The notes beneath the pieces were generated by a model that saw only the letters and a list, made by a program, of their open reading frames with translations, was not told the origin of the DNA and made no database searches. A DNA stretch of 4,193 bases from a virus. Taxonomy: Duplodnaviria > Heunggongvirae > Uroviricota > Caudoviricetes. The position numbers were made by a program, and so were the translations under genes. Each line of letters opens with the position of its first letter. Position 1 is the first letter of the stretch. Of this stretch, positions 1 through 454 are shown in pieces. The stretch covers positions 1 to 4,193 of the IMG/VR virus record IMGVR_UViG_2700989509_000012. One strand, 5' to 3'.

Positions 1-229
1 ATATTCAGATGCAGATTTTTTAATTCACGATCCATAACTCCCCCTGAAAATTATGTAAACACACACCAGTGATGAACAAAAAACAACCAGATTCGACACT
101 AAAAATTTTTATTTTTCTATATATCAATAACTTACACTGGTGGTGATGGTGCCATAAAAATCAAAAAATGCGCCTTTTTCCGCGCCGCCCGCCCCGTGTT
201 CAGGCCCACCCCACCAGGAGGACCCGCAA

Positions 230-250
230 AAATGATAATGGTTATCATTT
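230..250. promoter_or_regulatory. perfect 9-bp inverted repeat (AAATGATAA tgg TTATCATTT); core resembles a Fur-box 7-1-7 motif
   Basis: Arms 230-238 and 242-250 are exact reverse complements. Core TGATAATgGTTATCA (233-247) matches the 7-1-7 consensus TGATAATnATTATCA at 13 of 14 specified positions. Lies in an apparently non-coding stretch and overlaps the start of a 40-aa plus-strand ORF. Confidence 0.25.
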
Positions 251-454
251 GCAACAAAATCCAGTTTCTTCCACCATCGCACCGGACTGGCGACTATGAG
301 GGGAGAACGCCGCGCTCCGTTAACGCGGTAAACCCCGGTGTGTATCGTTTTTGATTATCCCCGCACACTCGCGCAGAGGAGTCTCCCTGTCGGGCTGCGG
401 TCTCTGTTAATGCAGGAATACGGCGACAATACCGCGCATGGATAATAAGGTCGC

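Follow-up and report, generated by a model that had tools for sequence, protein, structure and literature searches.

The window, by which is meant the whole stretch of DNA analyzed here, comprises 4,193 nucleotides (positions 1 to 4,193 of the IMG/VR virus record IMGVR_UViG_2700989509_000012). All credible genes of the window are on the minus strand, and its close relatives are Stx-converting and other lambdoid phages. The features of the window are as follows, in their order along the minus strand.

3253-3038, minus strand: P21-type holin.
3033-2044, minus strand: DUF1327 protein.
2001-1468, minus strand: endolysin.
1194-676, minus strand: Rz.
679-455, minus strand: 74-aa ORF, whose start overlaps the Rz stop.
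232-354, plus strand: 40-aa ORF, judged spurious; its ATG is inside the palindrome and its apparent Shine-Dalgarno sequence lies over the cosQ complement.
230-250, no strand: Fur-box palindrome, supported by shuffles, a Fur matrix, alignment to lambda, Qin, and DLP12, and offset conservation.
219-225, minus strand: cosQ (GGGTCCT), aligned to lambda 48473-48479.
175-205, minus strand: cosN, from alignment to lambda ACG/GGGCGGCGACCT, where the slash marks the nick.
36-174, minus strand: presumptive cosB, from inverted 8-mers, its place between cosN and the terminase small subunit gene, and the described architecture of such sites (PMC4669245).
1-35, minus strand: start of the terminase small subunit (DUF1441 family; ATG at 35-33), mapped from the annotation of phage ASU11; the gene runs out of the window.

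On the minus strand the order is therefore Rz, the 74-aa ORF, a probable structured RNA of 180 nt, the Fur box (250-230), and then, after a gap of 4 nt, cosQ, cosN, the presumptive cosB, and the terminase small subunit gene, terS. The ASU11 homologue of the small subunit matches PF07278 (E=3.8e-49), and in both phage ASU11 and an O157:H7 chromosome the DUF1441-type terS is followed by the terminase large subunit, W, and portal genes (PGAP annotation). Because terS starts at base 35 and the terminase genes lie beyond, the 420-nt gap that holds the palindrome occupies the usual place of cos in a lambda-like phage. BLAST homology to different phage groups begins or ends at window positions 125, 249-264, and 439; these points match the outer Fur-box edge and both ends of the 180-nt module, which mark mosaic junctions of the lysis-to-cos region. 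The lysis region has an insertion of its own, a 329-aa ORF (2044-3033, minus strand) with an N-terminal DUF1327 domain between holin and endolysin, which is absent from phage ASU11 and present in Stx2_95.

The termination signal cosQ, 7 bp in length, shows high conservation across lambda-like phages (PMC4669245). The local alignment partner of the window minus strand is the lambda cos junction, AGATGATAATCATTATCACTTTAC-GGGTCCT-(23 nt)-/GGGCGGCGACCT, opposite which the window reads AAATGATAACCATTATCATTTTTGC-GGGTCCT-(24 nt)-/GGGCGGGCGGCG; the distance from cosQ to the predicted nick is 24 nt in the window compared with 23 nt in lambda, and spacer classes of 19, 20, and 21 nt all occur among 116 cos regions. 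The predicted 12-nt cohesive end, GGGCGGGCGGCG, corresponds to window positions 194 to 183 (minus strand), with the predicted nick after ...ACG, between 195 and 194. The arrangement ACG/GGGCGGGCGGCG/CG at 197-181 (minus strand) keeps the conserved left half GGGCGG and has CG at both predicted nick positions. The predicted end departs from lambda solely at positions 7-12, and these positions of cosN are naturally variable (PMC4669245). Phage LLS, which has a related type of cos, offers support by analogy for the predicted cleavage into 12-nt cohesive ends, as its genome record begins at the annotated cohesive end GGGCGGCGCGCT and ends ...ACG. Between cosN and terS, the inverted 8-mers CACCAGTG (64-71) and CACTGGTG (135-142) flank an AT-rich tract at about 95-125, from which we infer candidate terminase-small-subunit sites with a bend or an IHF site between them. 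The palindrome lies in the DNA-packaging region, cos, of a lambda-like prophage of the Stx type.

The palindrome, AAATGATAA-tgg-TTATCATTT, spans window positions 230-250, with perfect 9-nt arms (230-238 and 242-250) and a 3-nt spacer; the initial annotation recognized the exact inverted repeat but placed its start at 228, whereas the perfect arms begin at 230. With up to two mismatches allowed, the window holds a single copy of the pattern, and none of 200 dinucleotide-preserving shuffles contains it; the palindrome is real, and chance falls far short of explaining it. Its 19-nt core (231-249) is centered on position 240; read along the minus strand, this center precedes the first G of cosQ by 15 nt. 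The dyad symmetry of the palindrome (perfect arms around a 3-nt center) suits a Fur dimer. The core TGATAATgGTTATCA differs at one position from the Fur 7-1-7 motif, as previously described. Other elements of that description are also present in the sequence, with a different meaning: the AGGAGG at 216-221, 10 nt upstream of ATG 232, had been taken for a ribosome-binding site and instead overlaps AGGACCC, the plus-strand complement of cosQ, and the GC-rich block is as described in sequence but not in context, being cosN. The frame opened by ATG 232 does end at 354, and the ORF list gives a 52-aa ORF with a GTG start (196-354) that contains it.

For scoring, a symmetric 19-nt Fur matrix was built from 15 E. 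coli K-12 sites, with coordinates from Table 4 of Chen 2007 (PMC2189734). The window site AATGATAATGGTTATCATT (center 240) scores 27.3 bits; known Fur sites, in leave-one-out scoring, range from 16.8 to 28.1 bits with a mean of 21.2, and only 8 of 83,466 positions in 83 kb of K-12 background reach at least 14 bits. On the same matrix the homologous lambda/Qin site scores 20.6 bits and the DLP12 site 24.6 bits. These scores lie near the published values for nohA and nohB (22.3 and 25.3 bits), which validates the matrix. The window copy outscores both homologues, with better AAT/ATT flanks despite one differing inner base. Across the complete lambda genome the cosQ-adjacent site is the best match to the Fur matrix and the sole strong site of this type. 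The second-best lambda match (J02459, 46848) scores 14.7 bits and precedes the start of bor by about 96 nt. Matrix scoring had been proposed as a check on the Fur-box reading, which is borne out by the score, by homology to the Fur-bound nohA/nohD sites, and by conservation in related prophages. On this sequence evidence Fur very probably binds the window site.

The homologous sites are those of lambda/Qin (TGATAATCATTATCA) and DLP12 (TGATAATTATTATCA), which align with window TGATAACCATTATCA directly upstream of cosQ. The Qin (nohA) site is identical to lambda 48452-48466, and the coordinates of the nohA and nohB sites (Chen 2007) convert exactly to the cosQ-proximal palindrome in Qin and DLP12. 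With published scores of 25.3 bits (nohB) and 22.3 bits (nohA), these sites are among the strongest Fur clusters of the genome, and purified Fur at 150 nM gel-shifts the nohA site (Chen 2007, PMC2189734); a nohA fragment was also recovered by in vivo selection of Fur-binding DNA (Vassinova and Kozyrev, 2000, per PMC2189734). nohA is filed under Fur-repressed operons (Myers 2013). With iron supplied, nohA, nohD, and nohD2 transcripts are 9-12-fold lower in Fur+ than in Fur- cells (RNA-seq, PMC10219339 Table S2), a difference to be read with the caveats that one lambdoid prophage of that strain is wholly induced in the fur mutant (PMC10219339) and that reads may cross-map between noh paralogues. 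The Fur-regulon tables consulted, including those of PMC10219339, list no Fur ChIP peak at nohA/nohD, possibly due to genomic repetition of the noh sequence.

An FNR site has been placed at -85.5 from a nohA transcription start (Grainger 2007), and from this spacing the nohA transcription start falls inside the Fur box. The FNR site, TTGATGCAGATCAA, is found in Qin (L006) and DLP12 (L007) about 90 nt upstream of the Fur box, and in lambda at about 48370. It lies between the Fur box and the divergent gene ynfO/ylcI, about 66 nt before the ynfO start, and has no counterpart in the window; the spacing from FNR site to ynfO fits a separate FNR-dependent leftward promoter. In lambda (J02459), an ORF running from 48303 to 48109, unannotated in the record, is homologous to ynfO/ylcI (DUF3950 in K-12) and is transcribed away from cos.

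The Fur sites of K-12 nohA and nohB/nohD thus resemble that of the window in lying directly upstream of cosQ, cosN, and terS and in sharing the same 7-1-7 core. They differ in their surroundings: the upstream flank of the window is unrelated and has neither the FNR site nor a divergent DUF3950 gene, with the probable 180-nt structured RNA there instead, and the small subunit is DUF1441-type in the window but Nu1-type at nohA/nohD. Published work treats the nohA/nohD sites as gene-upstream operators.

Conservation of the box was surveyed in 104 non-redundant lambda-type cos regions with lambda-like spacing, drawn from viral contigs, and a few phage records were examined besides; cosQ is invariant by construction of the search, and cosN always lies 19-21 nt after cosQ. 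Across genome contigs, chance matches in high-GC genomes overwhelm the cosQ-to-cosN pattern. A Fur site of at least 12 bits centered 11-17 nt before cosQ is present in 56 of the 104 cos regions, lambda included, and in 50 of these 56 the center of the box lies 13-15 nt before cosQ; the best site reaches at least 16 bits in 51 regions of the 104-region set. The rest of the flanks contains 7 such matches in 70,390 positions (about 1e-4 per position). Conservation of the palindrome in related prophages, another check proposed at the outset, is seen as a box kept beside cosQ. When the regions are aligned on the box, information per column is 1.2-2.0 bits in the box and 0.0-0.4 bits in the upstream flank. 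Among the 56 sites there are 37 different 19-mers, set in 28 unrelated contexts on the upstream side and 13 on the downstream side; AATGATAATCATTATCATT, their consensus as a family, equals the Fur consensus and scores 30.2 bits. Natural variants outscore random variants with an equal number of substitutions on the Fur matrix in 31 of 37 cases (Wilcoxon p about 1e-7, with shared ancestry ignored). The box accompanies both families of terminase small subunit, being present in 36 of 49 Nu1-type and 16 of 30 DUF1441-type regions. BLAST breakpoints at its outer edge (window 249-264, and the same in related phage records) indicate that the box travels with the cos module, and it is rather likely that it is selected as part of that module. 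Of 5426 complete E. coli genomes, 1890 carry the region, often in multiple copies.

The remaining 48 of the 104 cos regions have no box, and phage LLS, examined separately, is also without a good one; with about half of lambda-type cos regions lacking it, LLS among the box-less, the box is dispensable. Eighteen of the box-less regions have a terminator (GC hairpin and T-run) in the position of the box, and 30 have neither feature. In the terminator class (e.g., L091, L009, L022, L099, and L117), a co-directional gene ends no more than about 30-40 nt from cosQ in 17 of 18 regions; these regions are suspected to be phage-inducible chromosomal islands or satellites that borrow a lambda-type cos. 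The box is common and under selection, yet dispensable.

A promoter for the box to control was sought on both strands. A consensus scan found no recognizable sigma-70 promoter in window 1-800 on either strand, and in a set of 48 different cos regions that carry the box, -35 hexamers spaced 16-18 nt from its four -10-like hexamers are no more frequent than background on either strand; on these two null results a sigma-70 promoter at the box was rejected. The window does not preserve TGaTATGTA, the extended -10 element that fits the start in Qin and lambda. With no promoter overlap found, a classical promoter-occluding operator is less likely; the claim of Fur binding is unaffected. A divergent gene as the regulated target was likewise rejected, since the orientation of the nearest upstream ORF is mixed (divergent in 23 and co-directional in 32 of the 56 box-bearing regions) and the K-12 FNR site fits a separate ynfO promoter. 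An operator of the CI/Cro repressor type does not fit a single window copy in the packaging region, with no clustered copies.

Upstream of the box, a non-coding module of about 180 nt (window 262-441, minus strand) is conserved and sharply bounded; it occurs in at least 30 lambdoid contigs, not always near cos, and one contig (L025) has two copies. Its consensus fold has an energy of -42.5 kcal/mol on the minus strand and -20.1 kcal/mol on the plus strand, and comprises 39 pairs with 99.4% of cells paired, 5 of the pairs showing compensatory changes; one-sided changes, checked by hand at one pair, are G-U-compatible on the minus strand, and the covariation score is reached by 0 of 500 shuffles. 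The fold model suggests that the late transcript probably contains a structured RNA here, in the stretch from the lysis genes to cos. Rfam gives no match in window 150-500, even at E=10; AgvB and AsxR, for which Rfam families exist, were rejected as candidates, with no match to either and both located elsewhere, 3' of stx. At the start of the module (441-409, minus strand) there is a possible 10-codon mini-ORF, ATG CGC xGT ATx GTC GCx GTA TTC CxG CAT TAA, encoding MR[GCR]IVAVF[LP]H; most copies preserve it with synonymous changes, and the ATG is missing in some.

A second Fur-like site, AATAAGAACTGTTTTCATT, occurs at the other end of the window (plus strand, center 3855, 18.0 bits), between a perfect TTGACA (3841-3846) and a TAAAAA -10 element. 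This second box, which is conserved in two other loci, is directly upstream of an Esr41-like small RNA (3880-3956, plus strand) that ends in a hairpin and T-run; its Rfam score of 29.5 bits is far below the family threshold of 102. Esr41 represses heme and iron uptake genes, and the Esr41-like locus looks like a RyhB-style, Fur-repressed prophage sRNA.

The best explanation for the palindrome beside cosQ is a high-affinity Fur operator within the cos region that has a transcriptional blocking role, for which the chances are about even; that the main output of the box is transcriptional is a more tentative proposition, held at somewhat under an even chance. Iron-loaded Fur dimer(s) would occupy about 30 bp ending against cosQ. 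At the K-12 homologues, Fur would keep Q-independent transcription toward cos and the terminase gene off when iron suffices, and the same blocking role here would make the box an operator or roadblock at the entrance to cos and to the terminase genes. The binding of Fur to the homologues, together with their de-repression in a fur mutant, suggests by analogy that the output in this prophage may be the same.

The transcriptional reading is ranked above a role in packaging because of the experimental support in the homologues; against it, a pure operator leaves unexplained the fixed place of the box beside cosQ while the upstream sequence is swapped. That place is what speaks for Fur as a host accessory factor for lambda-type packaging, bound in front of cosQ: Fur would first be met by the translocating terminase at the chromosome end and would slow or position the motor for cosQ recognition and cosN cutting, as a counterpart to IHF, which acts at I1 in cosB when packaging starts, or, in variants of the idea, iron status would modulate the efficiency with which terminase stops and cuts, or Fur would protect or mark the right chromosome end. 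The offset to cosQ is near-fixed whatever the upstream sequence or the terminase small-subunit family, the box moves with cos, its outer edge being where the mosaic breakpoints lie, no conserved promoter accompanies it, and portal mutations that slow packaging reportedly suppress cosQ mutations in work from the Feiss laboratory. A packaging role is nonetheless unlikely. An experimental link between Fur and lambda packaging is absent and the searchable literature never pairs cosQ with Fur; saturation mutagenesis by Wieczorek and Feiss in 2001 is said to limit cosQ to 7 bp; functional elements such as phage LLS have a box-less cos; a terminator replaces the box in the suspected phage-inducible chromosomal islands; and the short spacing from box to cosQ could simply be inherited. 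Another reading is a functionless box, an inherited relic hitch-hiking with the indispensable cosQ and cosN: recombination is anchored by an invariant element at most 20 nt away, 48 of 104 cos regions do without the box, and the window shows neither a promoter nor a partner gene. There is only a slim chance of this, given that 1.2-2.0 bits per position in the box beside essentially random outer columns is a signature of purifying selection, that natural variants keep their Fur scores, and that the window copy scores above both experimentally bound homologues.

It is highly doubtful that the likeness to Fur sites is incidental and that another dimeric protein (terminase, a phage protein, or a host factor such as Zur or H-NS) recognizes the palindrome, a reading that takes in the phage dimeric regulator which the initial annotation had offered as its alternative. 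The site is symmetric and AT-rich and lies where terminase acts, its outer AAATG...CATTT arms are also similar to Zur boxes, and binding of Fur to the exact window variant is predicted from the homologues; but the site is single-copy and in the packaging region, the family consensus is the Fur consensus, natural variants follow tolerances of Fur learned from unrelated chromosomal sites, purified Fur binds the lambda/Qin version, and the box coexists with two unrelated families of terminase small subunit. Were Fur acting on a promoter in the opposite direction, the box would be the operator of a weak leftward (plus-strand) promoter with the cosQ complement as its -35 element (AGGACC at 219-224, an 18-nt spacer, TATCAT at 243-248, start near 255), yielding an iron-regulated antisense RNA or a moron transcript like ynfO-ydfO in K-12 and lambda. 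The geometry is that of classical Fur repression, since the box covers both the spacer and the -10; lambda, Qin, and DLP12 have a DUF3950 gene that is read in the direction away from cos, starting about 150 nt from the box, and the divergent upstream ORFs counted above agree with such a promoter. It is very improbable all the same: the -35 matches at 3 of 6 positions only, and no box-bearing region has at least 4 in this direction; the K-12 FNR site about 66 nt before ynfO fits a separate promoter, which would leave the Fur box near -130; the more numerous co-directional ORFs disagree with it; and in the window no gene lies that way, where the conserved RNA structure is on the opposite strand. 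The original model, an iron-responsive operator of the 40-aa plus-strand ORF (232-354) or of a downstream moron, drew on the ATG inside the box and the AGGAGG 10 nt before it, and its chances are close to nil. Homologous copies of 260-440 carry indels (1 nt and 17 nt) that destroy the frame, PGAP annotates no such gene, the ORF overlaps the conserved structured RNA of the opposite strand, and the apparent Shine-Dalgarno sequence overlaps the cosQ complement; a promoter using the -10 of the box itself would start downstream of the ATG, and every neighboring gene is on the other strand. The 40-aa ORF was rejected as a gene, and it and its ribosome-binding site are artefacts of reading a cos site on the wrong strand.

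A Fur operator beside cosQ can be set against two known systems. The stx1 promoter of Stx1-converting phages has a Fur box that overlaps a defined promoter directly upstream of stx1A. Both it and the window box are in lambdoid Stx-type prophages and tie iron status to prophage expression; the window box, however, is several kilobases further downstream, past the lysis genes and inside cos, with no recognizable promoter. The other comparison is with the IHF site I1 of lambda cosB (PMC4669245), which like the Fur box is a site for a host protein, fixed within cos and conserved across packaging specificities. For I1, an influence on terminase binding and on phage yield has been demonstrated, whereas the Fur box has no known packaging phenotype, and I1 is on the cosB (initiation) side of cos while the Fur box is on the cosQ (termination) side. 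In the searchable literature no link of the nohA/nohD Fur sites to cos was found, and cosQ and Fur never appear together; the cos literature searched makes no mention of Fur or of a palindrome upstream of cosQ. The Fur sites at nohA/nohD were known already, and what is unexpected is their conserved position beside cosQ in lambda-type phages.

The nohA/nohD Fur sites, listed for 25 years as oddities within the iron regulon, exemplify a cosQ-adjacent box, and the regions that bear it include lambda itself and, in about a third of complete E. coli genomes, resident prophages. Small ORFs called within cos regions deserve distrust, and a strong Fur site is present in cos cloning vectors and in multi-copy lambda DNA, where it could soak up Fur. 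The question raised is why a phage keeps an iron-sensor site beside its packaging-end signal, before the terminase genes; if the packaging reading were true, the box would be a fourth sub-site of cos, present in lambda itself. For Stx-type prophages, iron limitation in the gut may affect expression or packaging at a second point besides the stx1 promoter.
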